Source: an uncultured Chloroflexia bacterium
GTDB taxonomy: Bacteria > Chloroflexota > Limnocylindria > Limnocylindrales > CSP1-4
DNA length: 64,000 bases
Assembly: GCA_963788235.1 (NCBI GenBank)
Contig: CAWBFV010000004.1
Span: forward strand, 406,336-470,335
Direction: 5' to 3'
Position numbers and translations under genes: made by a program. The notes beneath the pieces were generated by a model. The model had not been told where the DNA came from, did not search any database, and saw only the letters and a program-made list of their open reading frames with translations. Below are positions 39,789 through 58,397 of this stretch, piece after piece; within the stretch, counting starts at the first letter, position 1, and every line of letters begins with the position of its first letter.

Positions 39789-41324
39789 ATGACCCAGCTC
39801 GCCGAACCCGAGATCGCCCAGACCGCCGCGCCCGGGCGGATCAGTCACTGGATCGGTGGCCGCACCGTCGAAGGCACGTCAGGACGCCAGGGCGATGTCT
39901 ACGACCCGGCGACCGGACGCCTCGCCAAGCACGTCGATTTCGCCTCCGTCGAGGAAGTGGCTGCTGCGGTCGCCGCCGCCCGCGCGGCCTTCCCGGGCTG
40001 GCGCGCGACCTCACTCAGCAAGCGCACGGACATCCTGTTCAAGATCCGGAACCTCGTCGAACAGAATCGCCACGAGCTCGCGGCGCACCTGACTGCTGAA
40101 CACGGCAAGGTGCCATCGGACGCGCTGGGCGAGATCGCCCGAGGCCTCGAGAACCTCGAGTTCGCCTGCGGGATCCCGAACCTCCTCAAGGGCGGGTTCA
40201 CGGAGCAGGCGAGCACGGGCATCGACGTCTACCAGATCCGCCAGCCCCTGGGCGTCGTGGCCGGCATCACGCCGTTCAACTTCCCCGCGATGGTGCCGAT
40301 GTGGATGTTCGCGACGGCCATCGCGACGGGGAACACGTTCATCCTCAAGCCGTCCGAGAAGGACCCGTCGGCCTCGATCTTCATGGCCGAGCTGCTCCAC
40401 GAAGCCGGCGTGCCCGACGGGGTCTTCAACGTCGTCCATGGCGACAAGGTCGCGGTCGACGCGATCCTCGAGCACCCGGACATCGCCGCGATCAGCTTCG
40501 TCGGCTCCACCCCGATCGCGCGCTACATCTACCAGACCGGGACCGCCAACGGGAAGCGCGTTCAGGCCCTCGGCGGCGCGAAGAACCACATGATCGTGCT
40601 GCCCGACGCGGACATCGACATGGCCGCGGATGCCGCGGTCTCCGCGGGGTACGGTTCGGCCGGTGAGCGGTGCATGGCAATCGCGACGGTCGTCGCAGTC
40701 GGAGACGTCGCCGATCCGCTGGTCGACGCGATCACGGCTCGCCTCCCCAAGGTCAAGGTCGGGCCCGGCAGCGATCCCGAGGCCGAGATGGGGCCGCTCG
40801 TCACTCGCCAGCATCGCGACAAGGTGGCGTCCTACCTCGACAGCTCCGCGGAGCAGGGCGCGACCGTCGTCGCCGACGGCCGCGAGCACCCGCTCTACGG
40901 CGGCAGCGACGGGTTCTTCCTCGGCGTGTCGCTGATCGACCACGTGACCACGACGATGGACGCGTACCGCGACGAGATCTTCGGCCCGGTCCTGACCGTG
41001 GTCCGGGTAAAGACCTACGACGAGGCGGTCAAGCTGATCAACGAGAACCCGTACGGCAACGGGACCGCGATCTTCACGCGCGACGGCGGGGCGGCTCGCC
41101 AGTTCCAGTTCGAGGTCAATGCCGGGATGGTCGGCATCAACGTGCCGATCCCCGTGCCGGTCGCGTATTACAGCTTCGGTGGCTGGAAGGCGAGCCTGTT
41201 CGGCGACCTGCACATGTACGGACCGGAGGGGATCCAGTTCTACACGCGCGGCAAGATCGTCACGTCGCGCTGGCCGGATCCGGGCACGAGCAAGATCGAC
41301 CTCGGGTTCCCGCGCACGCGCTAG
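39789..41324 (+). CDS. mmsA: CoA-acylating methylmalonate-/malonate-semialdehyde dehydrogenase
   Basis: 511 aa. ITPFNFPAMVPMWMF, FILKPSEKDP, catalytic Cys in GERCMA, and the C-terminal ...INVPIPVPVAYYSFGGWKASLFGD that is characteristic of MmsA. Confidence 0.9.
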   Translation: MTQLAEPEIAQTAAPGRISHWIGGRTVEGTSGRQGDVYDPATGRLAKHVDFASVEEVAAAVAAARAAFPGWRATSLSKRTDILFKIRNLVEQNRHELAAHLTAEHGKVPSDALGEIARGLENLEFACGIPNLLKGGFTEQASTGIDVYQIRQPLGVVAGITPFNFPAMVPMWMFATAIATGNTFILKPSEKDPSASIFMAELLHEAGVPDGVFNVVHGDKVAVDAILEHPDIAAISFVGSTPIARYIYQTGTANGKRVQALGGAKNHMIVLPDADIDMAADAAVSAGYGSAGERCMAIATVVAVGDVADPLVDAITARLPKVKVGPGSDPEAEMGPLVTRQHRDKVASYLDSSAEQGATVVADGREHPLYGGSDGFFLGVSLIDHVTTTMDAYRDEIFGPVLTVVRVKTYDEAVKLINENPYGNGTAIFTRDGGAARQFQFEVNAGMVGINVPIPVPVAYYSFGGWKASLFGDLHMYGPEGIQFYTRGKIVTSRWPDPGTSKIDLGFPRTR

Positions 41325-42169: not shown

Positions 42170-43100
42170 CCGACACCGCTCCTTCACGGACCGCGCCCGC
42201 CAGGGCCGCGATGTCGGCCGGGCCGGTCCCGCAACAACCGCCAAGCCACGACGCCCCGAGGGCGGTCCACGACAGGACCGCCCTCGCGTCGTATCCGCCG
42301 CCTCCGTGCGCGGCCTCCCACACCCGGTTCGCGGGATCCCAGGCTTCGCCGAGGTTCGGGTAGGCGACGAGCGGCATGTCCGTCGCGTCCGCCGCGGCGG
42401 CGAGCAGGTCGGGGACGAACCTTGGTGCGGTGCAGTTGACGCCGACCGCCGCGATCCCCGCGACACCCGTCGCCACGCCGATGGCCTCCGCGATGGGCTC
42501 GCCGGCCGCGGTGGTCGCCTCGTCGCGACACTGGTAGGAGAGCCATGCCCTGGCCCCGAGCTCGTCGACCAGCGTCGCGAGGACCCGGCCCTCGCGCATC
42601 GTCGGGATCGTCTCGATCGCCAGCATGTCGGCGCCGGCGTCGAGGAGCGCCTCCATGCGCGGAGCGTGGAGATCGCGCAGCGCCTCGTCGCCCGGGTCGT
42701 AGTCGCCGCGGTACTCCGACCCGTCGGCGAACATCGCCCCATACGGTCCGACCGACCCGGCGACGAGCAGCTCGCCCTCGGCTCGACCCATCCGCTCGGC
42801 GAAGCGGTCGCGCGCCCGTCGCGCGATCTCGACGGATCGTCTGATGGCACCGAGCGCCGCTGCCCGATCCAGGCCGGCCGCGGCAAAGCCCGGGATCGTC
42901 GCCTGGTAGCTCGCGGTGGTCGCGATCTCGGCGCCCGCCGCGAAGTAGGCGACGTGGACGGCCTCGATCGCGTCGGGATCCGTAAGCAGCAGGCGTGCCG
43001 ACCAGAGCCGATCGGACAGGTCGTGGCCGCGCGCCTCGAGCTCGGTGGCGAGCCCGCCATCGAGAACCACCGGCCGCGACGACCCTCGCGTCTCGATCAC
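42156..43100 (-). CDS. mmuM: homocysteine S-methyltransferase
   Basis: 314 aa. VLDGGLATELE..., ...AIETIP..., and the zinc site GVNCT...GGCCGTGP. Confidence 0.9.
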   Translation of the reverse strand: MIETRGSSRPVVLDGGLATELEARGHDLSDRLWSARLLLTDPDAIEAVHVAYFAAGAEIATTASYQATIPGFAAAGLDRAAALGAIRRSVEIARRARDRFAERMGRAEGELLVAGSVGPYGAMFADGSEYRGDYDPGDEALRDLHAPRMEALLDAGADMLAIETIPTMREGRVLATLVDELGARAWLSYQCRDEATTAAGEPIAEAIGVATGVAGIAAVGVNCTAPRFVPDLLAAAADATDMPLVAYPNLGEAWDPANRVWEAAHGGGGYDARAVLSWTALGASWLGGCCGTGPADIAALAGAVREGAVSVRSR

Positions 43101-44188
43101 GATGCGTGCCGACCGACCGCGACGATCGTCACGTCGTCGACCGGGTCCGCCGCTCCCCGGAATGCCGCGACGGCATCGCGGATGCCGGCGACCATCTCGT
43201 GGGCCGTCCCGTCGCGGAATCGCTCGAGTCCCTCGAGCAACCTCGCCTTGCCGAACCGCTCGCCGGCCTCCGATCGCGCGTCGGTGACGCCGTCGGTGTA
43301 GAGCAGCAGCGTGTCGCCGAGGCGCAGCTCGATCTCGACTTCCGGGATCCCCAGGCGCGAGAACGCGCCGAGGAGCGGGCCACCGCCGTTCACCGGCGCG
43401 ATCGGCGCGCCGTCGCGCGGGATCAGCAGCGGGGACTCGTGGCCGGCATTCGCCATCCGGAACGACCCGGTCCGGAGGTCCAGCCGACCGGCGAGGACCG
43501 TGATGAACAGCGTCGTATGCAGCTCGTCCACGAGGATCCGGTTGGTCCGTTCGAGTGCCTCGGATGGGCCGCTCGCGGCGGTGAGGGCGGTGTGGATCAC
43601 TGGGCGGGCGAAGGCCATCAGCAGCGCTGCCGCGATGCCCTTGCCGGCCACGTCGGCGATCACGACGCCCAGCGGGTGCGCCCGGCGCCGCATCCGGAAC
43701 AGCTCGAAGAAGTCGCCGCCGATCTCGCGCGCCGGCTCGTAGTGGCTGGCGAGGTCATAGCCCTCGACGTGCGGCGCCTGCAGCGAGACGATCGTCCGCT
43801 GCTGCAGCCGGCTCATCGCCAGGTCGGCCGCGAACGACGACCGGTCGGCGGGGGCGTCCCCCGACGGATCGTTCGACGCCCCCGACCGACGCCGCGCGTC
43901 GGCCAGCGCCTCGAGCCCGAGCGCCAGGGCCTCGACCGTCGCAACGACCGCCGGATCGGCGATCGCGCCACCCTCGGCGACGAGGCGCCCGATCAGCGCA
44001 TCGTCGATGCGCAGCTCGCGGCTGAATCGGGCATCGGACGCTCCAGCGACCTGACCCGCGATCGCGACGAGCGCGCCGGATGCGTCCTCGACGCGGATCG
44101 CCAGGTCACTCGGGATATCGGCGAGCGGTGCCAGGATCCGCCGGACCTGTGCGGCGTCCAGCCAGGCGTCTGGATCGCGTCCGGCCAT
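43097..44188 (-). CDS. PP2C-family (SpoIIE/RsbU-like) serine phosphatase
   Basis: 363 aa. EIGGDFFE...VVIADVAGKGIAAAL...NAGHESPLL...LLLYTDGVTD. It has an ATGA-type overlap with the downstream gene. Confidence 0.85.
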   Translation of the reverse strand: MAGRDPDAWLDAAQVRRILAPLADIPSDLAIRVEDASGALVAIAGQVAGASDARFSRELRIDDALIGRLVAEGGAIADPAVVATVEALALGLEALADARRRSGASNDPSGDAPADRSSFAADLAMSRLQQRTIVSLQAPHVEGYDLASHYEPAREIGGDFFELFRMRRRAHPLGVVIADVAGKGIAAALLMAFARPVIHTALTAASGPSEALERTNRILVDELHTTLFITVLAGRLDLRTGSFRMANAGHESPLLIPRDGAPIAPVNGGGPLLGAFSRLGIPEVEIELRLGDTLLLYTDGVTDARSEAGERFGKARLLEGLERFRDGTAHEMVAGIRDAVAAFRGAADPVDDVTIVAVGRHAS

Positions 44189-44206
44189 ATCGCGGGACCC
44201 GCCGGC

Positions 44207-44626
44207 TCAGAACGCGGCGAGCGCGGTCTCGCGGTCGGGATGGCTGCGGAAGAGGCGATCCAGGCCGGTCCGCTCGAGCACCTCGGTGACGCTCGGCTGG
44301 GCGCCGCACAGCTGGACGGCGGTCTGGACCTCGCCCTCCTCGACGCCGCGACTGACCTCGTGGAAGGCGCCCCAGCCGTACTCCGGATCGGGCGGCTCCT
44401 CGCCGTTCATCACGCGGACGACCGAGAACAGCGCGACGAGCCCGGAGCTCGCGATGAACGACAGGTCGGTCAGGTCGAGCAGCAGGTGGCGAGTGCCGGA
44501 GTCGTACAACTCGCGGACGTCATCGACGAGGCGCAGGTAATTGGACGCGTCGAGCTCTCCATCGAGCGCCATCACCGTGACCGGCACGCCCGCATCGACG
44601 CGCTCCACCCTGGTCAGCATCGCCAT
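44207..44626 (-). CDS. STAS-domain anti-sigma-factor antagonist
   Basis: 139 aa. ...LLLDLTDLSFIASSGLVAL... carries the phosphorylatable Ser context of the SpoIIAA/RsbV family. Confidence 0.8.
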   Translation of the reverse strand: MAMLTRVERVDAGVPVTVMALDGELDASNYLRLVDDVRELYDSGTRHLLLDLTDLSFIASSGLVALFSVVRVMNGEEPPDPEYGWGAFHEVSRGVEEGEVQTAVQLCGAQPSVTEVLERTGLDRLFRSHPDRETALAAF

Positions 44627-44629
44627 CTG

Positions 44630-45076
44630 CTAGCCCTCCTTCGCCTTGGCCACCCGCGACCGCGTGAGCGTGAGTATGTTCCCACCCCCGGGTCGCGGTT
44701 CGTGGCGGATCGAGTCCATCGCGAGACGCATCAGGTGCACGCCCATGCCGCCCGGCCGCCGATCCCTGGGGTGGATCGCGAGGTCCGGCGTCGGGACGTC
44801 GGTCGGATCGAAGGCCGGTGCCCGGTCCTCGAGCGTGACGACGATGTCGTCGCCGAGCAACTCGGCGGTCAGATCGATCGTGCCGGGCTGGCCCTGGTAC
44901 CCGTGGATGATGATGTTCGTGACCGCCTCATCGACCGCCTGGACGAGGTCGTCGACGCACGTTGCCGGCGCCTCGCACGCGCGAGCCACCTCGCGGACGG
45001 CGGCGCGGACGTCCGCGAGTCGCTCGACATCGGCGTCGATGTGCAGCTCGCGGCGGACGGCGACCAACTCGTTCAA
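44630..45076 (-). CDS. anti-sigma regulatory factor / serine kinase (RsbW/SpoIIAB-like HATPase)
   Basis: The TTG at 45076 overlaps the upstream stop (TTGA). AVDEAVTNIIIHGY (N-box) and ...GGMGVHLMRLAMD (G-box). Confidence 0.75.
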   Translation of the reverse strand: MNELVAVRRELHIDADVERLADVRAAVREVARACEAPATCVDDLVQAVDEAVTNIIIHGYQGQPGTIDLTAELLGDDIVVTLEDRAPAFDPTDVPTPDLAIHPRDRRPGGMGVHLMRLAMDSIRHEPRPGGGNILTLTRSRVAKAKEG

Positions 45077-45546
45077 TCGGCCGCGGCCGACCAGGCCTGG
45101 AGCTCGATGATGTTGCCGTCCGGGTCGGTGCCGTAGCACCAGGTGACCTGCCGCCCGTCGGATGTGCGGGTCGTGATGATGTGGCCGTATCGGGCGCCGC
45201 CCGCGGCCACGACCGCTTCCATCGCGGCGGACACATCCGGAACCTGGAACGCGATGTGGCCCCAGCCGGGGCGCGCGACGTGTGGCCCGGGGTGTCCCTC
45301 GAGCACGTCGTAGGAGAAGATCTCGATCGTCGGCCCCTCCGCCCCGTGTCCCGGAAGACGGAGGTGGGCACCGGTCAGGTGGGCATCCGTCAGGCCAGTC
45401 GCCGCATCGAGATGCTCGCCGCGGATGTCCCGCTCCGGCGGCACGATCGTGCACCCGAACACGTCGGCGTAAAACGCGGCAAGGCGCCGCCAATCAGGCG
45501 ACGTCACGTTGACATGGCCGAAGCGAGCGCCCTCGATCTGCGTCAT
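45073..45546 (-). CDS. VOC (glyoxalase/bleomycin-resistance/dioxygenase) family protein
   Basis: 157 aa. FGHVNVTS...GWGHIAFQV...DPDGNIIEL is a typical paired beta-alpha-beta-beta-beta pattern. Confidence 0.8.
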   Translation of the reverse strand: MTQIEGARFGHVNVTSPDWRRLAAFYADVFGCTIVPPERDIRGEHLDAATGLTDAHLTGAHLRLPGHGAEGPTIEIFSYDVLEGHPGPHVARPGWGHIAFQVPDVSAAMEAVVAAGGARYGHIITTRTSDGRQVTWCYGTDPDGNIIELQAWSAAAD

Positions 45547-45583: not shown

Positions 45584-46981
45584 TCAGGCGATCCTGGCGT
45601 AGTCGGCGGGGGAGCGCTTCACGAACTTCCCGGCACCTTTGCGGCCGGTGAACTCCCCGTCGCGCACGATGACCGATCCGCGGGACAGCACCACCTCGCT
45701 GAACCCTTGCACCTGGCGCCCCTCGTAGCACGAATAGTCGACGTCCATGTGGTGGGTCGTCGCCGAGATCGTCCGCCGTCGGTTCGGGTCGTAGATCACG
45801 AGATCGGCGTCGGAGCCGACGGCAACCGCGCCCTTCTTCGGGTACATGCCGAAGAGCTTCGCTGGTGCCGTCGAGATCACCTCGACCCAGCGTTCCCTGG
45901 AGATCCGTCCGTCGACCACGCCGCCGTCGTGGAGCAGATCGACGCGGTCCTCGACGCCAGGCAGGCCGTTGGGGATCTTGCGGAAGTCGCCCTTCCCGAG
46001 CTCCTTCTGGCCGTGGAAGTCGAACGGACAGTGATCGGTCGACACGACCTGCAGGTCGTCCTTGATGAGGCCTGTCCACAGGTCGTCCCAGTGGCTCTTG
46101 GGCCGGAGGGGCGGGGAGCACACGAACTTCGCGCCCTCGAACCCGTTGCCGAGGTCGTCGAGCGAGAGGAACAGGTACTGCGGACACGTCTCCGCGAAGG
46201 CCTTCGAGCCGCGATCGCGCGCCGCGCGCACCTCGGCGAGCGCCTCCATCGCGGAGAGATGGACGATGTACACCGGCACGCCGGCGGCCTCGGCCAACCG
46301 GATGACGCGGTTGGTCGCCTCGCCCTCGAAGACCGCCTTGCGGGCGAGACCGTGCCCGATCGGGTCGGTGGTGCCCGCGTCCACGGTCTGCTCGGCCACG
46401 ACGTCGATGGCCATGCCGTTCTCGGCGTGCATCATGATCAGCCCGCCGTTCGTCGCGGTCTGCTGCATCGCCCTGAAGATCGCGCCGTCGTCGCTGTAGA
46501 AGACCCCCGGATAGGCCGTGAACAACTTGAAGTCCGGCACGCCTTCCTCGACGAGCGCGTCCATCTCCGCGAGCGTCTCGTCGTTGACGTCGCTCATGAT
46601 CATGTGGAAGCCGTAGTCGGCGACGGCGTTGCCCTCGGCCTTGGCGTGCCAGGCGTCGAGCCCGTCACGCAGCGACTTCCCGCGCGACTGGACCGCGAAG
46701 TCGACGATCGTCGTCGTGCCACCGAACGCCGCGGCGCGCGTACCGGTCTCGAACGTGTCCTTGGCAAACGTGCCGCCGAACGGCAGCTCCATGTGCGTGT
46801 GCACGTCGATGGCGCCCGGGATCACGTACTTGCCCGACGCGTCGATCGACTCGTCGGCCGTCATTCCCGCGCCGGCCAGATCGGCACCGATCGCGGCGAT
46901 CGTCTCGCCGTCGATCAGCACGTCCGCGAGCTGCGAGCCGTCCGCGCTGACGATGGTGCCGTTGGTGATGAGCGTGCGCAT
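45584..46981 (-). CDS. dihydropyrimidinase / D-hydantoinase
   Basis: 465 aa, with AGGAGGG upstream. GAIDVHTHMELP (HxH), FKLFTAY (carbamylated Lys region), MMHAENG, and STDHCPF. Confidence 0.93.
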   Translation of the reverse strand: MRTLITNGTIVSADGSQLADVLIDGETIAAIGADLAGAGMTADESIDASGKYVIPGAIDVHTHMELPFGGTFAKDTFETGTRAAAFGGTTTIVDFAVQSRGKSLRDGLDAWHAKAEGNAVADYGFHMIMSDVNDETLAEMDALVEEGVPDFKLFTAYPGVFYSDDGAIFRAMQQTATNGGLIMMHAENGMAIDVVAEQTVDAGTTDPIGHGLARKAVFEGEATNRVIRLAEAAGVPVYIVHLSAMEALAEVRAARDRGSKAFAETCPQYLFLSLDDLGNGFEGAKFVCSPPLRPKSHWDDLWTGLIKDDLQVVSTDHCPFDFHGQKELGKGDFRKIPNGLPGVEDRVDLLHDGGVVDGRISRERWVEVISTAPAKLFGMYPKKGAVAVGSDADLVIYDPNRRRTISATTHHMDVDYSCYEGRQVQGFSEVVLSRGSVIVRDGEFTGRKGAGKFVKRSPADYARIA

Positions 46982-47074
46982 CGGTCCCTCCTGGGGCGAC
47001 CTCGTCGACGGTCGATCAGGAGGGAGATGGTAGGCGATGGGCGCCCCGTCGGCGCCCCTCGCGCGATGGGACGG

Positions 47075-47260
47075 TCAGCCGATCCCGAGCTGGTGGAGGA
47101 CCGGCCGGAGCACCTGGATCCACGCGTAGGTCGTCAGACCGCAGGCCACGATGGCGATCGAGAAGGCGACCTCGCCCTGGATCCTGCGGACGAGATGACG
47201 ACGTCGCGCACCGCGACCGTCATCCCAGTACGGATCCCGCTTGCCGATTCCGGCGACCAT
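47075..47260 (-). CDS. small hypothetical membrane protein
   Basis: The ATG at 47260 is preceded by GGGAGGG, giving 61 aa with one TM (VAFSIAIVACGLTTYAWIQVL). It lies between the LLM oxidoreductase and the dihydropyrimidinase. No family recognised. Confidence 0.4.
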   Translation of the reverse strand: MVAGIGKRDPYWDDGRGARRRHLVRRIQGEVAFSIAIVACGLTTYAWIQVLRPVLHQLGIG

Positions 47261-47401
47261 GGCGTCCCTCCCTGCAGGCGCGCCGCGGCGATGTGGACCG
47301 ATCCGGCGCTGGGCGACCATGGTCCCGCAATCCGGGTACCGATGCCTACCCTGACCTACCGGCCAGTACCCCTGCGCGCCGGCCCGGTCGGCCGCCCGCG
47401 G

Positions 47402-48394
47402 CTACTGGAACGCGGGGATGACGTCCGTCCCGTAGGCCTCGAGCTGGGCCTCTTCGTCGCCATTCATGAGGTATAGGTTGAACTGGTCCACGCCGGCATC
47501 GGCGAGCTCGCGCAGCTTGGCGATCTGTTCGTCCGGACCGCCGAGGATGCAGAAGCGATCGGTCACGTCGTCGCCCACGAACGCCGCGTTGGATGAGCCG
47601 ACCTCGGCGTGGTGGTGGTAGTCGTAACCGGTCCGATCGGTGACGTAGCCGGTCAGCGACTCGGGCAGCTGCTCGCGGGGGTACTTGTTCACGAGATCGA
47701 CGACGTGGTTCGAGACGAGCGCCGGGAACCATTTGGTCCGTTCGCGACCGACGTCGCGCGGACTGACGTGAGCAGGCGCCGCCGCCTGCACCTTCACGGC
47801 GTCGGCGGGTCGACCGGCGGCGACCGACGCCTCGCGGAGTTGGCCCACGAACCAGCGGATGAGATCCGGGTCGGCGAGCTGCAGGATGATCCCGTCCGCA
47901 ACGCGACCGGTCATCGCGATGGCCATCGGGCCGTAGCCGGCGACCCACACCGGTAGCGTCCAGCCCGTGGTCCACGGGAAGCGCAGCTCGGTGCCCTCGT
48001 ACTCGATCGTCTCGCCGGCGACCAACGCCCGGATGACGCGGATCGCCTCCTCGGTATGCGCCAAGGTGATCGGCGGCTTGCCAAGCACGCGACGGGCGGA
48101 ATCGCCGCGCCCGATGCCGAGGTCCATCCGCCCGCCGCTGATCTCGTCGAGCGTCGCAAGCAATGAGGCCGTGACCGTAGGCTCGCGCGTTCCCGGGTTG
48201 GTCACGCAGGTCCCCAGGCGGAGATGCTCGGTGGCGCCGGCTATCAGCGTCAGCAGCGGATAGGGGTCACGCCACAGCACGTGGCTGTCGAACAGCCACC
48301 CGTGTTCGAAGCCCGCCGCTTCTGCCTGGCGCGCGAGGGCCAGCGTCCGTTCGATCGTGTGGTCGGCCTTGAGCGTGAAACCGAACTGCATCAC
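47402..48394 (-). CDS. luciferase-like (LLM class, probably F420-dependent) oxidoreductase
   Basis: 330 aa. MQFGFTLK...AEAAGFEHGWLFDSH...LRLGTCVTNPGTREP...GRMDLGIGRGDS is typical of the LLM TIM-barrel family. Confidence 0.85.
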   Translation of the reverse strand: MMQFGFTLKADHTIERTLALARQAEAAGFEHGWLFDSHVLWRDPYPLLTLIAGATEHLRLGTCVTNPGTREPTVTASLLATLDEISGGRMDLGIGRGDSARRVLGKPPITLAHTEEAIRVIRALVAGETIEYEGTELRFPWTTGWTLPVWVAGYGPMAIAMTGRVADGIILQLADPDLIRWFVGQLREASVAAGRPADAVKVQAAAPAHVSPRDVGRERTKWFPALVSNHVVDLVNKYPREQLPESLTGYVTDRTGYDYHHHAEVGSSNAAFVGDDVTDRFCILGGPDEQIAKLRELADAGVDQFNLYLMNGDEEAQLEAYGTDVIPAFQ

Positions 48395-48404
48395 TGCTCC
48401 TACC

Positions 48405-48445
48405 GGGAAAGAAAGGACTCGGCTGTCCTCCTCCGAACAGCCGAG
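48405..48445 (-). terminator. candidate intrinsic terminator after the amidase gene
   Basis: Minus strand: CTCGGCTGT-tcggaggagg-ACAGCCGAG, a perfect 9-bp stem, followed by TCCTTTCTTTCCC. It lies between the amidase stop (48465) and the LLM start (48394). Confidence 0.5.
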
Positions 48446-48464
48446 CCGGCGCGGATGATAGCGC

Positions 48465-49316
48465 CTACGGGCGTGTCAAGTCAGCGTATGCGTCAGGTCG
48501 CCGATCGCGGAAGAACTGCCACGTGTTACGGACCTCGGCGATCTTGTCGAGATCGAGGTCGCGGACGATCAGCTCTTCCTCGTGAGCATCGCCGACGTCG
48601 CCGACATACTGGCCGCGCGGATCGACGAAGTAGCTCTGCCCGTAGAAGTCGTCGTCGCCGTAGTCCTTCTCGATCCCCACGCGATTGATGGTGCCGACGA
48701 AGTAGCCGTTGGCGACGGCGTGGCTCGGCTGCTCGATCTTCCAGAGGTACTCGGACAGGCCGCGCGACGTCGCGCTCGGGATGAACACGATCTCGGCGCC
48801 ATTGAGCCCGAGCGCCCGCGCGCCTTCGGGGAAGTGCCGGTCGTAGCAGATGTACACGCCGACCTTGCCGACCGCGGTCTCGAAGACCGGGTAGCCGAGG
48901 TTCCCGGGCCGGAAGTAGAACTTCTCCCAGAAGCCCTTCACGTGCGGGATGTGCGTCTTGCGGTACTTGCCCAGGTACGTGCCGTCGGCGTCGATGACGG
49001 CTGCGGTGTTGTAGTAGATGCCCGAGGCCTGGGCATCCTCCTCGTACATCGGGGCGACGACGACCATGCCGGTCTGCTTCGCGAGGTCCTGCATCCGCTT
49101 GGTGGTCGGGCCGTCCGGGATCAGCTCGGTGTAGCTGTAGTACTGCGGGTCCTGGACCTGGCAGAAGTAGGGCCCGTAGAAGAGCTCCTGGAACAGGATG
49201 ACCTGGGCGCCCTGCTTGGCCGCTTCGTGCGCCCGCTCCTCGTGCTTCTGGATCATCGATTCCTTGTCGCCGGTCCAACTGGCCTGGACGAGCGCCCCTC
49301 GGACGATACGCGGCAT
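48465..49316 (-). CDS. nitrilase-superfamily N-carbamoyl-amino-acid / beta-ureidopropionase-like amidohydrolase
   Basis: The ATG at 49316 gives 283 aa. The Glu-Lys-Cys triad contexts are ILFQELF, YRKTHIP and VYICYDRHFPE. Confidence 0.9.
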   Translation of the reverse strand: MPRIVRGALVQASWTGDKESMIQKHEERAHEAAKQGAQVILFQELFYGPYFCQVQDPQYYSYTELIPDGPTTKRMQDLAKQTGMVVVAPMYEEDAQASGIYYNTAAVIDADGTYLGKYRKTHIPHVKGFWEKFYFRPGNLGYPVFETAVGKVGVYICYDRHFPEGARALGLNGAEIVFIPSATSRGLSEYLWKIEQPSHAVANGYFVGTINRVGIEKDYGDDDFYGQSYFVDPRGQYVGDVGDAHEEELIVRDLDLDKIAEVRNTWQFFRDRRPDAYADLTRP

Positions 49317-49461: not shown

Positions 49462-50169
49462 GTGACCCTGTCGCTCGAGAACCCGGATCCGCGTGTCGTC
49501 GCGCCCGCGCGCGTCGCCGTCCGGCGCGGCCGGACCGCCGCCCTCGTGGAGCGGTTCGGGCTGCTCGGTTTTCTCGGGATCTTTGCTGCGGTGCGCGCCC
49601 GGCGCAGCGACGCCATCGATCTCGCGATCACGATGAAACTGCAGCGGGCCGCGAACCCGCTCCTCGATCGCCCGATGGAAGCCGTCTCATGGCCCGGTTT
49701 CCCGCCGCAGAGCCGGATCATCCCGGCGCTCCTCGTGGTCGGTCTTGCGGCCATGCGGCTGCCGCTCGAGGCGATGTTCATGATCGTCGCGTGGGGCACC
49801 GCGCTCCTCGCTTCGGTCGTCAAGGCGTTGATGCGCCGGCCGCGACCCGTCGCCGGGGTCGATGTCCGCGTGATCACGGCGCCGCTCGGCGGATCGAGCT
49901 TCCCGAGCGGTCACACGATCACGTACGTCGGGATCTATGGGTTCCTCGCATACCTCGTCCACACCCTGCTGCGACCGGTCGCGCTCCGCCGGGTGCTCGT
50001 CGGCGGTCTCGTCGGGCTCGTGGCCATGGTGGGTCCGAGCCGCGTGCATCAAGGCCACCATTGGTTCACCGACGTGACGGCGTCGTACCTGCTCGGAATC
50101 AGCTATCTGATCCCGCTGACGCGGCTCTACCGCGAACGGAAGGCCCGTGGCAGCGGGGAGCGCGCGTGA
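49462..50169 (+). CDS. PAP2-family phosphatase (membrane)
   Basis: 235 aa. KALMRRPRP, FPSGHT and SRVHQGHHWFTDV give the three PAP2 motifs. Confidence 0.85.
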   Translation: MTLSLENPDPRVVAPARVAVRRGRTAALVERFGLLGFLGIFAAVRARRSDAIDLAITMKLQRAANPLLDRPMEAVSWPGFPPQSRIIPALLVVGLAAMRLPLEAMFMIVAWGTALLASVVKALMRRPRPVAGVDVRVITAPLGGSSFPSGHTITYVGIYGFLAYLVHTLLRPVALRRVLVGGLVGLVAMVGPSRVHQGHHWFTDVTASYLLGISYLIPLTRLYRERKARGSGERA

Positions 50170-51202
50170 CCAGCGCGCACCCGCGTCGGATCCTCGTCAT
50201 CCGCAACCCGTCCGCCGGCGTCGCAGCTGCGCTGACCCCCGGGGCGGCTCCATCGACGCGCTTCGTGCGCTCCTCGAGCGACACGCCATCGCCGCGGAGG
50301 TGATCGAGCCCGAGGACGAGGATTCGGCGCGCGCCGCGGTGCGGAAGGCCGTCGCGGACCGCGTCGACGTCGTCGTGGCCGCCGGCGGCGACGGGACGGT
50401 CCACATGGTCGCCGACGAGCTTTTGGGGTCGGATTCGGCGCTCGGCATCCTGCCGATGGGCCGCGTCATGAACATCGCGCGGGCGCTGGGGATCGGACGG
50501 GACCCGGAGCTCGCGGCGAGGATCCTTGCCGCCGGCCACGTCCGTGCCGTCGACGTCGGCGAGGCCGTCGCGTCGGATGGACGGACCGTGCCGTTCCTCG
50601 AAACGGGGTCCGTCGGCCTGAACGCCGCGATCTTCCGCGAGGTGTCGCGCGCGGACGAGGGCGAGCTGCACTCGATCCTGCGCACGATCTGGGCAGCCGT
50701 GCGCTATCGACCGGCGCGGATGTCCGTCGAGCTCGACGACGGTGTCGTCGAGACGCGAGCGCTGATGGTCACGGCCTCGATCGGACCGTACGTGGGGCTG
50801 GCCATGACGGTCGCGCCATCGGCCCGCCTGGACGACGGGCGGTTCGATGTCAGCATCTTCCGGCGCTTCTCGAAGTGGGAGCTGCTGCGCCATCTCGCGT
50901 CGATCGCCTTTGGGCGCCGGCAATACGCGCCGCAGGTTTCACGCCATCGCTCGGCGAATGTCCGGATCACGAGCAGGCGCCCACTGCCCGCCCGCGCCGA
51001 TCACTACGACCTCGGCTCGACGCCCGTCCGGTTCCAGACGAAGGCGCGCGCGTTGCTGGTCGTGGCGCCGGCGAGGAGCGTCGGGTCGGCAGACGCCGCG
51101 GCGGCCGGCGACAGCGCGGGCGCGCCTGAAGCCCGCGCGCGCCTCCCTCAGTCGGTCGGCGCCGGCTCGTCCGGTTCGGCTTCGGGCCGGCGGCGCATGT
51201 AG
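50166..51202 (+). pseudogene. diacylglycerol/lipid kinase family (YegS/LCB5-like), one frameshift
   Basis: The GTG at 50166 (GTGA overlap with PAP2) gives ...RRILVIRNPSAGV. The rest (GSIDALRALLERH...VVAAGGDGTVHMV...LGILPMGRVMN...) is in the frame of ORF 50147..51202. The shift lies at the C5G4 run at 50236-50244. The low-complexity tail overlaps the convergent gene by 55 nt. Confidence 0.8.
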
Positions 51203-51555
51203 TACTCGGTGAACTCGCGGCAACGGCCCTCGCCGTCGAAGCGGCAGACGAAGACGTTCGCGAACTCGCGATCGACTTCGCTTCGATCGTCGGTCAGATA
51301 GCGCGTCCGACCGTGGGCGACGAACACGTCGCCGTCGACGGCGAGCACGTCGTAATCCGCTTGCCATGAACCCGGCTCGTCCGGATCGTCCAGCCACGCC
51401 TCGATGACCGCGTTCCGGCCCGCGACCGCCTCGCTGAACGGGTCGAATGCGTAGCGCACGTCCGGGCTGAACAGGTCGCCGATGGCGACCGCGTCGTTGA
51501 GCCGCCACGCATCGACGTAGCGCTGCAGCCAGGCGCGGAAACCGGCGCGATCCAT
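51148..51555 (-). CDS. SnoaL-like / NTF2-fold protein
   Basis: The ATG at 51555 gives 135 aa. FRAWLQRYVDAWRLNDAVAIGDLFSPDVRYAFDPF... is a typical NTF2-like cone pattern. Confidence 0.65.
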   Translation of the reverse strand: MDRAGFRAWLQRYVDAWRLNDAVAIGDLFSPDVRYAFDPFSEAVAGRNAVIEAWLDDPDEPGSWQADYDVLAVDGDVFVAHGRTRYLTDDRSEVDREFANVFVCRFDGEGRCREFTEYYMRRRPEAEPDEPAPTD

Positions 51556-51600
51556 CCCGGAACGGTAGCACCGAGGCACGCCGAGGCGAATCGCCGCGCC

Positions 51601-51875
51601 GTTGACTCCCACGCAACAAAAACTGGTCGAGGGCCGATCAACACGGCCTCTGGCCCCCCTTGTGTCGACTCCCACGCGACAAACTGGGGTCGAGGACCGG
51701 TCAGTGGGGCTTTCGAGCCCTTTGTGTCGACTCCCACGCAACAAACTGGGGTAGAGCCGCGACCAACGCGGCCTTCGGGCCCTTTGTGTCGACTCCCACG
51801 CAACAAACCGGGTCGAGGATCGATCAGCGGGGCCTTCGACCCCTTTCTGTTGACTCCCACGCAACAACCGCTCGA
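51601..51875. repeat. tandem array of about 4.4 copies of a 61-63-bp unit with an invariant 21-nt core
   Basis: Units start at 51601, 51664, 51726, 51788 and 51849 (the last is partial). The core is GT(C/T)GACTCCCACGC(A/G)ACAA(A)C. The rest of each unit is about 75% conserved and GC-rich, with hairpin potential (e.g. GGGTCGA...TCGACCC in unit 4, GCCGCG...CGCGGC in unit 3). It fills the divergent intergenic region. Confidence 0.9.
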
Positions 51876-51883
51876 AGCGCGCG

Positions 51884-53017
51884 ATGCGGCATCATGCCGC
51901 CGTGCGACTGCCCACCCGTGCCCGCCGACAGCTGGGTCGGATCGCCCGGCGGGTTGCTCCCGATGCCGCGTATGTCGGCTGGCCGCCGGAGGTGCTTCCC
52001 CGCTCGATCAGCCGCGACGGTGGTGCGAGGCCTAGCGTCGGCCTCGTCGGGTTCTACGGTCCGGGCAACTACGGCGACGAGCTGTTCCTCGAGGTGTTCC
52101 GCCAGCACCTCGGCTCCGTCGTCGACCTCGACGTCGTCTTCGATTCGCCGACGCGGCCATATTTCGATCGACCGGTCCGCGACGTCGTGCGCGAGCACGA
52201 CGCGATCCTCATCGGTGGCGGCGACCTCCTGGTCCCGTGGGGGCTCGGCGATCGCTACTGGCTGCCCGATTACCTGCGTCGACCCGTCCATGTCATCGGT
52301 GTCGGGGTACCAACCTGGCGACCGTCCAAGCCAGGGGTCGTCGATCAGCTCGGGCGGTTCCTGCGTCACCGCAACGTTCGCAGCATCACGACCCGCGACC
52401 GCGAGAGCACCGCGTGGATCCGCGAGCACCTGCGTCCCCGGGTGGAGGTCGAGACCGCGGCCGACCTCGTGTTCGCCCTGGACCTGCCCCGGGTCGAGCG
52501 ACCAGCCGGTCAAAAGATCCTCGGCATCACGGTCCGCTGGCGCGACCGCGACGATGATTACACCGCCGTGCGCGCCCTGGCCGACAAGGGTCGGGCGCTC
52601 GGGTATCGGCTGCGGACGATCGTCCTCTCGACGGACGACGTCCGCGCGCGCGACGAGCGCGCGCTCGATGCGCTGAACCTCCAAGGCCCGGACGTCGAAC
52701 GGATCGCGTCCGACGACCTCATGGCGCTCACGCGCGCGATCGGCGAATGCACGATGCTCGCGAGCCACAAGTTCCACGGCACGGTCGTGGCGACGGCCTA
52801 CGGCATCCCGGCGATCTCGATGAGCACGAGCGACAAGAACCGAAACCTGCTTGGGCGACTCGGCCGGCCCGAGCTCGTGTGCGCCTTCGACGACCCGCGA
52901 CTGCCCGACCTCGTCGTGCGCGATCCCGCGCCGCCCGACCCGACGATCCGGGCGGCGATGACCCGCGAGGCGACCGATGCGCTCGCGCGTCTCCGCGCGC
53001 GGTTGGTCGAGGGCTGA
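51884..53017 (+). CDS. polysaccharide pyruvyl transferase family protein
   Basis: 377 aa. GFYGPGNYGDELF...ILIGGGDLL...ASHKFHGTVVATAYGIPAI is typical of CsaB/WcaK-type enzymes. The start may be further downstream. Confidence 0.75.
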   Translation: MRHHAAVRLPTRARRQLGRIARRVAPDAAYVGWPPEVLPRSISRDGGARPSVGLVGFYGPGNYGDELFLEVFRQHLGSVVDLDVVFDSPTRPYFDRPVRDVVREHDAILIGGGDLLVPWGLGDRYWLPDYLRRPVHVIGVGVPTWRPSKPGVVDQLGRFLRHRNVRSITTRDRESTAWIREHLRPRVEVETAADLVFALDLPRVERPAGQKILGITVRWRDRDDDYTAVRALADKGRALGYRLRTIVLSTDDVRARDERALDALNLQGPDVERIASDDLMALTRAIGECTMLASHKFHGTVVATAYGIPAISMSTSDKNRNLLGRLGRPELVCAFDDPRLPDLVVRDPAPPDPTIRAAMTREATDALARLRARLVEG

Positions 53018-53123: not shown

Positions 53124-54461
53124 ATGGGCATCGGGACCGCATCCACGGCGATGACGATCGACGAGATCGTCGCCCTCAATCGCGAGCACACGTTCTTCTC
53201 GTGGTCGGTCCAGGGCGCGATCGACCCGATCGTCATCGAGCGCGCCGAAGGCGTGTGGCTGTACACGCCGGACGGCCGCCGGATCCTCGACTTCAACAGC
53301 CAGCTGATGTCGGTCAACATCGGCCATGGCGATCGGCGCGTGATCGATGCGATCACCGAGCAGGCGACGAAGCTGCAGTACGTGCAGCCGGCCTTCGCGA
53401 CGGAGATCCGCGGCCGGCTGGGCCAGAAGCTCGCCGAGATCCTGCCGGGCGACCTTGACAAGGTGTTCTTCACGCTGGGGGGCGCCGAGGCGATCGAGAA
53501 CGCGATCAAGCTCGCCCGCCACTACACCGGCCGCTACAAGGTGCTGGCGCGCTATCGCGCCTACCACGGCGCGACCCTGGGGGCGATGACGCTGACCGGC
53601 GACCCGCGGCGCTGGGCAAACGAGCCCGGCCTCGTGGGCGTCGTCCGCTACCCGGACACGCATCGCTGGGGCGAGGCAGAACCCCGTCCCGTGGCGGAGT
53701 CGCTGCAGGGTCTCGAGGACGTCATCCGCTACGAGGGGCCGCACACGATCGCGGCGGTGTTCCTCGAGACGATCGTGGGTACCAACGGCATCCTGATCCC
53801 GCCCGACGGGTACATCCAGGGCGTCCGCGAGATCTGCGATCGTCACGGGATCCTCATGGTCTGCGACGAGGTCATGGCGGGGTTCGGGCGGACCGGCCGC
53901 TGGTTCGCCGTCGACCACTGGGACACCGTGCCCGACCTCATGACGATGGCCAAGGGCCTGACATCCTCGTACCTCCCGCTTGGCGCGGTCGCGATGCGCC
54001 ACCACATCGCGCAGGCCTTCGAGGACAAGATGTTCTACGGCGGCCTGACGTATTCCTCGCACCCCGTGTCGCTCGCTGCGGCGCTCGCGACGATCGGCGT
54101 GTACGAGGAGGACGGGCTGATCGACAACGCGGCACGGCTGGGTGCCCGGATGCGCGAGCACCACGAGCGCCTCGCGGCCAAGCATCCGTCGGTCGGGGCC
54201 CACCGGAACCTCGGTCTGTTCGGCATCCTCGACCTCGTCCGTTCGCGCGACCCGTGGACGCCGATGACGCCGTTCAACGGCTCGTCAGACGAGATGAAGG
54301 CGATCGGCAAATACTTCCGCGACCACGGCCTGTACACCTTGATCGCCAACAACTCGATCCATACGAACCCACCGCTGTCGATCGACGAGGACGAGCTGGC
54401 GGGAGGCTTCGAGATCATCGACGCCGCCCTCGACATCGCCGACCAGGCAGTCAGCGGCTAG
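53124..54461 (+). CDS. class III (omega) aminotransferase, beta-alanine/taurine:pyruvate type
   Basis: 445 aa, with GAGGAGGA upstream. LGGAEAIENAIK, CDEVMAGFGRTG, and TMAKGLTSSY (PLP Lys). Confidence 0.88.
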   Translation: MGIGTASTAMTIDEIVALNREHTFFSWSVQGAIDPIVIERAEGVWLYTPDGRRILDFNSQLMSVNIGHGDRRVIDAITEQATKLQYVQPAFATEIRGRLGQKLAEILPGDLDKVFFTLGGAEAIENAIKLARHYTGRYKVLARYRAYHGATLGAMTLTGDPRRWANEPGLVGVVRYPDTHRWGEAEPRPVAESLQGLEDVIRYEGPHTIAAVFLETIVGTNGILIPPDGYIQGVREICDRHGILMVCDEVMAGFGRTGRWFAVDHWDTVPDLMTMAKGLTSSYLPLGAVAMRHHIAQAFEDKMFYGGLTYSSHPVSLAAALATIGVYEEDGLIDNAARLGARMREHHERLAAKHPSVGAHRNLGLFGILDLVRSRDPWTPMTPFNGSSDEMKAIGKYFRDHGLYTLIANNSIHTNPPLSIDEDELAGGFEIIDAALDIADQAVSG

Positions 54462-54512: not shown

Positions 54513-55448
54513 GTGACGACACAGGCCGCGGCCCCGATCGCCCTCCGCTCGACCGATCGGTCGACGCCGACCCCGCTGCGTCGGCGCACGCGACTCGTGG
54601 CGATCCTCGGCCTGCTGGTCCTGTTGGTGCTCATATGGGAGGGCGCCAAGTGGATCGGCGGCGATCCCTGGCGGCTCCACGGCACGGTCGCCGGCATTCG
54701 GATCGACTACGAGCACTTCCCGCCACTCAAATGGCGCATCGCCACCGATCTGGCGCTTCCCCACGTATGGGAGATCGCCGCCGCGTTCGTCCAGCCGGCG
54801 CAACGCAACGGGCCCCCACTCGGCCAGGTGCTGCTCGGAAATGCCGTCTTCACGTTCGGCGAGGCGCTCGTTGGCTTTGCCATCGGCGCGACGCTCGGCC
54901 TCGTGCTGGGCATCGCCTTCACGCAATCGAGGACGGCGGAGCGAGCGTTCGTCCCTTACGTGGTCGCGTCGCAGACCGTGCCGATCGTCGCGATCGCGCC
55001 GTTGGTCGTGATCTTCCTGCCGGTCGGCTGGCTGGCCGTGGCGATCATCGCCGCTTACCTGACGTTCTTTCCGGTGACGATGGGCGCGCTCCGGGGCCTG
55101 CGGTCCGCGGACCCGCGCGCCGCCGAGCTGATGCGCTCCTATGCCGGCTCCCCCCGTCAGATCCTTTGGAAGCTTCGCCTCCCGGCGGCGCTGCCCTACC
55201 TCTTTGCGTCGCTGCGGATCGCGGCGAGCGCAAGCGTGGTCGGGGCGATCATCGGCGAGCTGCCGTCGGGCATCCCGTATGGACTCGGCAGCTCGATCCT
55301 CAACTTCAAGCAGTACTACGTCTCGGGCCCGTCCAAGCTGTGGGCAACGATCATCGTCGCCGCCATGCTCGGGCTGGTCTTTGTGGGTCTCGTCCGCGCA
55401 GCCGAGGCGCTGCTCAGTCGCGGGCGGTATCGGAGGATCGAAACATGA
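54513..55448 (+). CDS. ABC transporter permease (NitT/TauT family)
   Basis: 311 aa and about 6 TM segments, with an EAA-like loop (...MGALRGLRSADPRAAELMRSYAGS...). Confidence 0.85.
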   Translation: MTTQAAAPIALRSTDRSTPTPLRRRTRLVAILGLLVLLVLIWEGAKWIGGDPWRLHGTVAGIRIDYEHFPPLKWRIATDLALPHVWEIAAAFVQPAQRNGPPLGQVLLGNAVFTFGEALVGFAIGATLGLVLGIAFTQSRTAERAFVPYVVASQTVPIVAIAPLVVIFLPVGWLAVAIIAAYLTFFPVTMGALRGLRSADPRAAELMRSYAGSPRQILWKLRLPAALPYLFASLRIAASASVVGAIIGELPSGIPYGLGSSILNFKQYYVSGPSKLWATIIVAAMLGLVFVGLVRAAEALLSRGRYRRIET

Positions 55449-56281
55449 CCGCTCAGCCGACGTCGGTCGTCGAGATTCGCGGCGTCGGCAAGGAGTTCGG
55501 CGAGACGGATCGGCTCGTGGCGTTGCAGGACATCGACCTCACGATCCGTGCTGGCGAATTCATCTCGCTGATCGGCCCGTCGGGCTGCGGCAAGTCGACA
55601 CTCCTGCGCCTCATCGGCGACCTAACGACGCCGACAACGGGCTCGATCACGGTGAACGGCCGGAGTGCCCGTCAGGCTCGGCTCGGTCGCGAGTACGGGA
55701 TGGTCTTCCAGGCACCGGTCCTGATGGACTGGCGCACGGTCCAGAAGAACGTGGAGCTCCCCCTCGAGGTCATGGGCTTCGACAAGGCGCAGCGGGAGCA
55801 GCGGTCGAAGGCGATGCTGGAGCTGGTCGAGCTCGGCGACTTCGGTCGTACGCACCCGTGGCAGCTGTCCGGTGGCATGCAGCAGCGCGTGGCGATCGCC
55901 CGCGCTCTCGCATTCGATCCCAAGCTCCTGCTCATGGATGAGCCGTTCGGGGCACTCGACGAGATGACCCGCGAGCGGATGAACCTGGAGCTCATGCGGA
56001 TCTGGCGCCAGACGGGGACGACGATCGTCTTCGTGACCCACTCCATCCCCGAGGCGGTCTTCCTGTCGACGCGCGTCGTCGTCATGTCGGCGCGGCCGGG
56101 CCGCATCAGTCGCATCGTGGAGATCGACCTTCCGCAGCCGCGCACCGTCGAGACGCGCGAGCACGAACGCTATTTTGGGCACGTGACGACCGTTCGCGAG
56201 GCCCTTCGCCGGCACGAGGGCACCGATGGCGGGCCGGATGAGGCCGAGATCATGCAGATCCGGGCCGAAGGGCTCGCGTGA
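55445..56281 (+). CDS. ABC transporter ATP-binding protein
   Basis: ATGA overlap with the upstream gene. Walker A GPSGCGKST, signature LSGGMQQR, Walker B LLLMDEP. Confidence 0.93.
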   Translation: MTAQPTSVVEIRGVGKEFGETDRLVALQDIDLTIRAGEFISLIGPSGCGKSTLLRLIGDLTTPTTGSITVNGRSARQARLGREYGMVFQAPVLMDWRTVQKNVELPLEVMGFDKAQREQRSKAMLELVELGDFGRTHPWQLSGGMQQRVAIARALAFDPKLLLMDEPFGALDEMTRERMNLELMRIWRQTGTTIVFVTHSIPEAVFLSTRVVVMSARPGRISRIVEIDLPQPRTVETREHERYFGHVTTVREALRRHEGTDGGPDEAEIMQIRAEGLA

Positions 56282-57099
56282 GTTCGACGGTCGCCCGGCG
56301 ACGCCCGTCCTCCTTCGGGATTCGGGCGCGCATTCGGGATCTGGTCCCGGTTGTCGCCGTGTTCGTCGTCGGGATCGTCCTCTGGGAGGTCGTCCTGGGC
56401 GTGCTGGGCGTCAAGCAGTTCCTGCTGCCGCGGCCGTCGGTGATCTTCGCGTCGCTCCTCAGCGAGTGGGGCACGCTCGTCGAAGGCCTCCGCTACACGG
56501 CCATCGAGGCCATCGGCGGGCTGGCGATCGGGAGCGTCGTCGCGCTGCTGACGGCCTTTGCGACCGCCCGCTGGGTGCTGGCTCGGGAGACGCTCGTGCC
56601 GGTGGCGATCGCGGCCAACTCCATGCCGATCATCGCGTTCGCCCCGATCACCAACAACTGGTTCGGATCGGAGAACGCGGCTTCCCGCATGACGATCGTC
56701 GCGGTGATGGTCTTCTTCCCGATCATGGTCAACGCGGTCCGTGGCCTGACGAACGTCGATGCCGCGGCGATCGAGCTCATGCGGTCGTATGCCGCATCCG
56801 ACCTCGCGGTGCTTCGACGCGTTCGGATCCCCAACGCCCTGCCCTACATCCTCACCGCGTTCAAGGTCGCAACGACCCTTGCCGTCATCGGTGCCGTGAT
56901 CGGCGAGTACTTTGGCGGGCCGCGCCAGGCGCTCGGCATCTACATCACAGGCGAGGCCACGCTCTTCCGCTTTGCGAACGCGTGGGCGGCGATCCTCATG
57001 GCCTGCGCCTTGGGGATCGGGCTCTATCTGATCGTGGTCCTGGCAGAGCGCGTGCTCCTGCCGTGGCATGCTTCGGGTGCCCGGGGGGAGGCGCGCTGA
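56278..57099 (+). CDS. ABC transporter permease (second, NitT/TauT family)
   Basis: 273 aa with a GTGA overlap onto the ATPase gene. EAA-like loop ...VRGLTNVDAAAIELMRSYAAS.... Confidence 0.85.
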   Translation: MSSTVARRRPSSFGIRARIRDLVPVVAVFVVGIVLWEVVLGVLGVKQFLLPRPSVIFASLLSEWGTLVEGLRYTAIEAIGGLAIGSVVALLTAFATARWVLARETLVPVAIAANSMPIIAFAPITNNWFGSENAASRMTIVAVMVFFPIMVNAVRGLTNVDAAAIELMRSYAASDLAVLRRVRIPNALPYILTAFKVATTLAVIGAVIGEYFGGPRQALGIYITGEATLFRFANAWAAILMACALGIGLYLIVVLAERVLLPWHASGARGEAR

Positions 57100-58359: not shown

Positions 58360-58397
58360 TCCACTCTCGCGGAGTGGCAACCACGGAGGCCGGCCCC

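Follow-up and report, generated by a model that had tools for sequence, protein, structure and literature searches.

Genes of the locus

This report concerns a stretch of 64,000 nucleotides (the window) from an uncultured soil Chloroflexia bacterium of the GTDB class Limnocylindria: positions 406,336 to 470,335 of contig CAWBFV010000004.1, assembly GCA_963788235.1. The G+C content of the window is about 70%, a value that could bring an actinomycete to mind, but the organism belongs to the Chloroflexota. We focus on a core of four genes that includes a dihydropyrimidinase and a luciferase-like oxidoreductase (LLM). The four core genes lie on the minus strand, are codirectional, and each have their own ribosome-binding site; their order is CN-hydrolase, LLM, a 61-amino-acid open reading frame (ORF), and dihydropyrimidinase. 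The genes for a class III aminotransferase, a CoA-acylating (methyl)malonate-semialdehyde dehydrogenase (MMSDH), an ABC importer, and the uracil phosphoribosyltransferase Upp are all close to the core, at distances of up to about 11 kb (Table 1). Profile searches confirmed all of the genes that had been named in an earlier note on this DNA, with position and family in agreement. The cluster probably encodes the reductive catabolism of uracil and thymine, with the usual first enzyme (PydA or PreT-PreA) replaced by an F420-dependent LLM of the family TIGR03842.

By sequence, the identity of the dihydropyrimidinase is unambiguous. TIGR02033 is an equivalog model with a cut-off of 393 bits, which the protein exceeds by a wide margin (585 bits), and the nearest solved structures are the D-hydantoinase/dihydropyrimidinase proteins of Bacillus and Brevibacillus (4kqn and 3sfw; E ~1e-151). 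The CN-hydrolase did not reach the cut-off of any NCBIfam equivalog (the best was aguB, with 272 bits versus a cut-off of 410). Its nearest solved structures are N-carbamoylputrescine amidase (4e-64) and the beta-ureidopropionases of Drosophila and human (4e-53 to 2.5e-50), while D-carbamoylases reach only about 1e-25. These comparisons suggest that it belongs to the branch of beta-ureidopropionase and N-carbamoylputrescine amidase. The start codon that gives a protein of 283 amino acids carries a Shine-Dalgarno sequence, and relatives are also 283 amino acids long.

Table 1. Features of the locus, with the profile matches or signals that identify them (a score after "vs" is the cut-off of the model)
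Feature	Position	Strand	Basis
CN-hydrolase, beta-ureidopropionase-like (step 3: N-carbamoyl-beta-alanine to beta-alanine)	48465-49316	-	PF00795 4.9e-66
LLM, TIGR03842 family, proposed uracil/thymine reductase (step 1)	47402-48394	-	Bac_luciferase 1.9e-62; TIGR03842 419 bits
61-amino-acid ORF, one hydrophobic segment	47075-47260	-	Shine-Dalgarno; GC3 0.82
Dihydropyrimidinase / D-hydantoinase (step 2)	45584-46981	-	TIGR02033 585 bits
VOC/glyoxalase-fold protein, directly downstream of dihydropyrimidinase	45073-45546	-	PF00903 9.8e-11
Class III aminotransferase, proposed beta-alanine/beta-aminoisobutyrate transaminase (step 4)	53124-54461	+	PF00202 4.8e-88; NF004718 534 bits vs 472
MMSDH, CoA-acylating (step 5)	39789-41324	+	TIGR01722 729 bits vs 448
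ABC importer: permease, ATPase, permease, two NMT1/THI5-type binding proteins	54513-59753	+	BPD_transp_1 x2, ABC_tran, NMT1 x2
Uracil phosphoribosyltransferase, upp	59754-60437	+	PF14681 1.4e-72

The 61-amino-acid ORF has a ribosome-binding site (GGGAGGGA), a G+C content at third codon positions (GC3) of 0.82, and a single hydrophobic stretch, and it may encode a membrane protein. Profile searches gave no family match for it. At the same position, ORFs of 60 to 63 amino acids are called in the related loci L006 and L007, and tblastn found matches with 55 to 58% identity in L014, L015, and L024.

Soil RNA contigs from four libraries match the dihydropyrimidinase, the LLM, the hydrolase, and the small ORF at 88 to 99% identity, and one RNA contig, from a relative, spans the junction between the hydrolase and the LLM. 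Because these contigs are largely from related organisms, and because DNA carry-over is possible, they show neither expression nor an operon.

As for the neighboring genes, those that follow the dihydropyrimidinase on the same strand (43097-45546) encode the VOC-fold protein, an RsbW-like kinase, a STAS protein, and a PP2C (SpoIIE) phosphatase; the gaps between these genes are short or absent. A VOC gene and a kinase likewise follow the dihydropyrimidinase in L007. Between the core and the aminotransferase (49462-53017) are a PAP2 phosphatase, a YegS-type lipid kinase, and a polysaccharide pyruvyl transferase; this insertion is kept in L006.

The luciferase-like oxidoreductase and its genomic context

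The LLM matches TIGR03842 across the full length of the model (positions 1-329), with a score of 419 bits and a cut-off of 295.45. TIGR03842 is a "hypothetical equivalog" for LLM class F420-dependent oxidoreductases, with no assigned function. The LLM represents a divergent branch of this family, since the best-scoring member that we found (P0125, 574 bits) is only 46% identical to it. Homologs are very numerous: all 8000 of the 8000 scored candidates were significant, and many copies from metagenomes are 84 to 93% identical. Among solved sequences, the nearest is Mer (E = 5e-36, about 29% identity). The AlphaFold model of the LLM (pLDDT, 95.5) has TM-scores of 0.81 to 0.83 to Mer, and the top 20 Foldseek matches of the model are all F420 enzymes (Mer, FGD1, Adf, and FGD2), with flavin mononucleotide (FMN) enzymes lower; the sequence search ranks the relatives in the same order. 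The predicted fold and the nearest relatives support the placement of this protein with the F420-dependent luciferase-like hydride transferases, and we predict that it uses this cofactor.

By sequence, the LLM is not Mer, RutA, or PydA/PreA. It is far below the cut-offs for Mer (EC 1.5.98.2), with 138 bits versus 349 for TIGR03555 and 153 versus 276 for NF002619, and Thr7 aligns with Glu6 of Mer (jMer numbering), which is the catalytic residue (PMC11094777). The non-prolyl cis-peptide loop of Mer (VTNP) and the equivalent of Asp96 (Asp98) are kept. Position C of Mer (residue 178) was not used, as it is Asn in the sequence of the solved structure and Gln in the paper. As for RutA, its model (TIGR03612) is outside the 25 best of the 31 families that the LLM matched, and the gene map has no Rut-type neighbors. 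Lastly, the LLM has no match to PF01180, and so it is not a member of the PydA/PreA family. As the only PF01180 gene in the genome is PyrD (see below), our claim is that the LLM works like PydA or PreA, not that it belongs with them.

The genome (3.5 Mb in 8 contigs) contains just one gene with the DHO_dh domain (PF01180). This is a class 1 PyrD (388 bits for NF005574), and it scores 126 bits against the PreA model, whose cut-off is 335. Thus, searches with PF01180 and the PreA model did not find a dihydropyrimidine dehydrogenase of the PreA/PydA type in this genome, which is 88.9% complete. Five further genomes of the genus were searched, and none yielded PreA.

A survey of 121 Limnocylindria genomes that are at least 85% complete, including one unpublished genome (G118) that is not the sole support of any claim, gave a similar picture for the class. 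The TIGR03842 LLM is present in 103 genomes and dihydropyrimidinase in 104; 100 genomes have both, 14 have neither, and 7 have only one of the two. PreA is over its cut-off in 11 of the 121 genomes, and 89 of the 100 with both genes have no PreA over the cut-off. As these genomes are related and do not sample the class independently, we read the counts as a pattern and not as a statistical test. In one genus with small genomes, two genomes have both the LLM and dihydropyrimidinase and three have neither. PreA-like genes that score below the cut-off are present in several Limnocylindria genomes.

We also examined the neighborhood of the LLM in 80 loci from species-representative genomes (55 to 89% identity), which are from Chloroflexota (Limnocylindria, Ktedonobacterales, and Chloroflexales), Acidobacteriota, and Binatota. 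Dihydropyrimidinase and/or the hydrolase is encoded within the available flank of the LLM in 72 of these loci. Of the 40 loci in which each flank is 5 kb or longer, 37 have one or both within 6 kb. The gene order varies, with at least four arrangements around the LLM across lineages. In family f3 of the Limnocylindria (L120), cofE, the hydrolase, and dihydropyrimidinase are followed by a convergent LLM. In Terriglobales (L074), dihydropyrimidinase is divergent from the LLM, and then come an NCS1 nucleobase permease, the hydrolase, and a gene of the adenosine deaminase family. In P0125, the order is hydrolase, dihydropyrimidinase, aldehyde dehydrogenase, LLM, and an ABC/NMT1 transporter, with an aminotransferase nearby; the NMT1-type transporter of the window thus recurs, by type, in this operon. 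Many Limnocylindria loci also have MMSDH no more than 10 kb from the LLM.

We considered whether the unlinked LLMs might form a separate family of paralogs, but in a quick maximum-likelihood tree they nest inside the linked clades, which rules this out. This nesting suggests that the linkage is ancestral and has survived rearrangement. In the same tree, the LLM of L082, from a genome labeled Candidatus Binatus, nests in the Acidobacteriaceae clade and adjoins L089. Horizontal transfer or misbinning could explain this placement, so Binatota may be weak as the third phylum. Another LLM, from the same LLM clade as ours (64% identical; L039:5241-11008), is divergent from an amidohydrolase and a YgfK-like protein of 1189 amino acids (Fer4_20, Pyr_redox_2). 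This neighborhood resembles a reductive uric acid cluster for which an F420 LLM has been proposed (PMC12507026).

Some Limnocylindria have a conventional version of the cluster. In L124, an aminotransferase gene is next to genes for the hydrolase, dihydropyrimidinase, a fused PreT-PreA, and MMSDH, and there is no LLM in that cluster. The hydrolase and the dihydropyrimidinase are 83% and 72% identical to the proteins from the window. The same genome has a second dihydropyrimidinase, which adjoins the LLM. In L123 (genome G094), the hydrolase-dihydropyrimidinase pair is beside a stand-alone PreA-like gene. Homologs of the aminotransferase are present both in LLM clusters and in the conventional cluster. 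As the two hydrolases are paired with a conventional reductase in some genomes and with the LLM in most, this is the pattern that we would expect for non-orthologous replacement. Also, the presence of orthologous hydrolases in the PreTA cluster argues that the hydrolases of the window act on dihydropyrimidines and not on hydantoins. The stand-alone gene in L123 (L123:5957-7084) encodes 375 amino acids with only the DHO_dh domain, and it is 38% identical to the PreA part of a fused dihydropyrimidine dehydrogenase; from its sequence, it may be a PydA variant with a different electron donor.

The genome also encodes part of the machinery for F420. Outside the window, an island at G000:C4:560580-566486 contains cofE (257 bits versus a cut-off of 181), cofC (141 versus 105), cofD, two LLMs of TIGR03560, and a PPOX-class F420 enzyme. 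There are about 18 LLM paralogs in this 3.5-Mb genome, and three of them flank cofC, cofD, and cofE. Across the class, cofE is present in 116 of the 121 genomes. Of the 35 genomes of family f3 that have the LLM, 27 have cofE no more than 4.6 kb away from it, and in L120 cofE immediately precedes the hydrolase and dihydropyrimidinase genes and shares their strand. The distance from cofE to the LLM is 9 to 21 kb in family f4 and 108 kb in our genome. Among five genomes of Acidobacteriota and Binatota that have the cluster, all five have cofE, and four have cofH over the cut-off.

Our reading of the cluster builds on what we established directly, namely the gene identities, the absence of a recognizable PreA or PydA, the F420-type fold and family, and the conserved linkage. 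From these we infer the activity of the LLM, including which substrate it takes, which way the reaction runs, and that F420 is the cofactor. In the proposed mechanism, F420H2 would sit in the barrel and reduce uracil or thymine by transfer of a hydride to C6, and an acid from the protein would protonate C5, which would give 5,6-dihydrouracil or dihydrothymine. Dihydropyrimidinase would then open the ring, and the CN-hydrolase would form beta-alanine or beta-aminoisobutyrate along with NH3 and CO2. The class III aminotransferase and the CoA-acylating semialdehyde dehydrogenase would convert these products to acetyl-CoA or propionyl-CoA. The NMT1-type ABC system is the likely importer.

The earlier note had described a pathway without its first enzyme, which is borne out for this genome and for the 89 of 100 Limnocylindria genomes mentioned above. 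It had also called the LLM probably F420-dependent, and this agrees with the family, with the nearest sequences and folds, with the presence of cofC, cofD, cofE, and F420-family enzymes in the genome, and with the position of cofE beside the partner genes in a sister family. Its suggestion of an LLM that may reduce uracil or thymine gains support from the linkage in three phyla and several gene orders and from the PreT-PreA clusters of sister genomes.

Objections and alternatives

Several observations weigh against this reading. In the window, the genes for the aminotransferase and MMSDH are about 4 to 4.5 kb from the core, on the opposite strand, with unrelated genes in between. For every member of TIGR03842, the argument for a pyrimidine reductase is from sequence and genomic context. 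Because the genome is 88.9% complete, the absence of the dehydrogenase from this organism is unproven, and the class survey, as noted, describes a pattern among relatives. Furthermore, the LLM and PreA are not strictly complementary: all 11 of the genomes with PreA also carry the LLM, and some of them have two parallel dihydropyrimidinase clusters, so we rejected strict complementarity.

The other objections concern the cofactor. In the assembly, cofD is split over two reading frames (G000:C4:564077-564986). The break is located only approximately, near codon 175; a cofD from the same genus is only 72% identical at the DNA level. Five other genomes of the genus have an intact cofD, and the split may be an assembly error or may indicate a pseudogene. 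Neither of the genes for Fo synthase, cofG and cofH, was found in this genome. A search for cofH in 31 relatives gave no match, and just 2 of the 121 Limnocylindria genomes have cofH over the cut-off. Given that cofH is nearly absent from the class, the supply of F420 would depend on another source of Fo. A clear F420-reducing enzyme was also not found in the genome: the Fno-like match has 79 bits, and the cut-off is 150, while the best model for the Fgd-like gene is of the FMN type. All of the producers that have been studied use CofG/CofH or FbiC, according to a 2021 review of F420.

The earlier note had raised the prospect that there might be no F420 pathway in this organism. This is half right, as Fo synthase was not found and cofD is frameshifted, but cofC, cofD, and cofE are present. 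The retention of these three genes without Fo synthase across nearly the whole class suggests, from gene content, that Fo is scavenged or that there is another route to the deazaflavin. Overall, the context supports the use of F420 well, but the genes found do not account for the deazaflavin head group.

We also considered other roles for the LLM. It might act on a different ring, such as hydantoin, a substituted or oxidized pyrimidine, or a cyclic ureide, and feed a D-hydantoinase-type amidohydrolase and a carbamoyl-amidase. To judge by the names of the family and of the solved structures, TIGR02033 enzymes accept both hydantoins and dihydropyrimidines; the Terriglobales version of the cluster includes an adenosine deaminase family gene and an NCS1 permease, of a type that takes cytosine, uracil, allantoin, or hydantoin; and the neighbors of the LLM in L039 recall the uric acid cluster. 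However, D-carbamoylases are much more distant from the hydrolase than beta-ureidopropionase and N-carbamoylputrescine amidase are, the cluster is repeatedly accompanied by MMSDH and an aminotransferase of the beta-alanine type, the orthologous hydrolase and dihydropyrimidinase are found in a conventional PreTA cluster, and upp is nearby. We therefore consider another ring to be unlikely. A salvage role is more improbable still: the LLM would oxidize imported dihydropyrimidines to uracil or thymine, with F420 as the acceptor, to feed Upp, and catabolism would start from imported dihydropyrimidines without a reductase. The reactions of dihydropyrimidine dehydrogenases are reversible, many F420 LLMs are dehydrogenases, and upp and the importer are adjacent. 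But upp accompanies the cluster only in close relatives, and sister genomes with the conventional cluster have a catabolic PreTA at the same position. This role would also require the same activity that we propose, with the direction reversed.

The LLM might instead act downstream, for instance as an F420H2-dependent reductase for malonate semialdehyde or methylmalonate semialdehyde (an analog of PydE), with step 1 carried out by an unrecognized enzyme or by none. F420 LLMs that have been characterized do include alcohol and carbonyl oxidoreductases (Adf, Fgd, fHMAD, and fPKR), and PMC12507026 cites extended Pyd pathways that include a semialdehyde reductase. Yet the clusters already have a semialdehyde dehydrogenase beside the LLM, and the conventional cluster has PreTA and MMSDH without the LLM. 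In about 89 genomes, the semialdehyde would then have two enzymes and step 1 would have none, and we give this explanation as little credence as salvage. Finally, the LLM could be an FMN monooxygenase (RutA-like or otherwise) or a Mer-type enzyme of C1 metabolism, that lies among these genes by chance. Most of the LLM superfamily depends on FMN, Fo synthase is lacking from the class, and no characterized enzyme is closer than Mer. On the other hand, RutA is outside the 25 best NCBIfam families while TIGR03842 is matched at 419 bits, the Mer models and the Glu6-to-Thr7 change speak against Mer, the linkage survives several rearrangements in three phyla, and cofE is directly upstream of the partner genes. 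Of the explanations considered here, we put the least weight on this one; it is highly improbable. All of these alternatives are less parsimonious than an LLM that reduces uracil or thymine.

We are evenly divided on a broader claim: that TIGR03842 comprises F420H2:uracil/thymine oxidoreductases that replace dihydropyrimidine dehydrogenase without being homologous to it and are widespread in Chloroflexota and Acidobacteriota, and that in Limnocylindria the F420 is made from Fo that the cells cannot make, so that scavenging of nitrogen from pyrimidines relies on deazaflavin from the community.

Comparison with known pathways and enzymes

The reductive pyrimidine pathway is textbook metabolism, and to our knowledge, its first enzyme has always been thought to be a flavoprotein with the DHO_dh fold and with NAD(P)H or ferredoxin as the electron donor. 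If the LLM catalyzes this step, then an old reaction would have a new enzyme, a deazaflavin-dependent TIM barrel. A large and conserved family that is named only by its TIGR number would gain a function, and a gap would be filled in pathway reconstructions for abundant Chloroflexota and Acidobacteriota of soil and freshwater. F420 would also have a defined role in core metabolism outside of methanogens and actinomycetes. The occurrence of cofC, cofD, and cofE without Fo synthase across nearly all of the class points to a dependency on a cofactor precursor in uncultured soil bacteria.

The earlier note stated that, as far as its author knew, this activity had not been demonstrated. In agreement with this, none of the open-access and bioRxiv full texts that we searched describes a dihydropyrimidine dehydrogenase that depends on F420, mentions TIGR03842, or links F420 to the catabolism of pyrimidines. 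A review of F420 lists the remaining LLM hydride transferases as being of unknown function (PMC8498797). Mycolicibacterium smegmatis has two dihydropyrimidinase genes under nitrogen control by GlnR (PMC3662644, PMC13718301), and neither paper names an LLM or F420.

Compared with the Pyd pathway, in which PydA or PreT-PreA is followed by PydB (dihydropyrimidinase), PydC (beta-ureidopropionase), a beta-alanine transaminase, and a semialdehyde dehydrogenase, steps 2 to 5 are present at this locus with strong family matches. Where the pathways differ is in the first step: no PydA or PreA was found in this genome, and an unrelated TIM-barrel enzyme of the F420 type lies between the two hydrolases. 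The electron donor for the reduction of uracil is known to vary by lineage, as in the ferredoxin-dependent PydA of Clostridium chromiireducens (PMC7332683). That protein is still an FMN enzyme with the DHO_dh fold, whereas the catalytic protein here is from another superfamily. RutA is luciferase-like as well and attacks the uracil ring, but it depends on FMN and O2 and works with RutB-G, not with dihydropyrimidinase.

A parallel idea comes from the uric acid clusters of Chloroflexota, in which an F420 LLM ("yanthine reductase") was proposed in 2025, from bioinformatics only, to replace a PydA-like ring reductase (PMC12507026). In both cases, an F420-type LLM is found where a PydA-like or YgfK reductase would be expected; we compare the two proteins by role, not by membership in TIGR03842. 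The uric acid pathway itself is different from the cluster described here, as it involves SsnA, HyuA, YgeW, and other proteins.

Among characterized enzymes, Mer is the closest to our LLM, but besides the replacement of Glu6 by Thr and the low scores for the Mer models, the genomic context is pyrimidine catabolism instead of C1 metabolism. LxmJ, a reductase of the dehydroalanine C=C bond, also belongs to the Mer-type clade of F420 LLMs (PMC8518648, PMC8498797) and would, by analogy, be a chemical precedent for the proposed reduction. Overall, the comparisons support a new assignment that joins a known pathway to a known enzyme superfamily.

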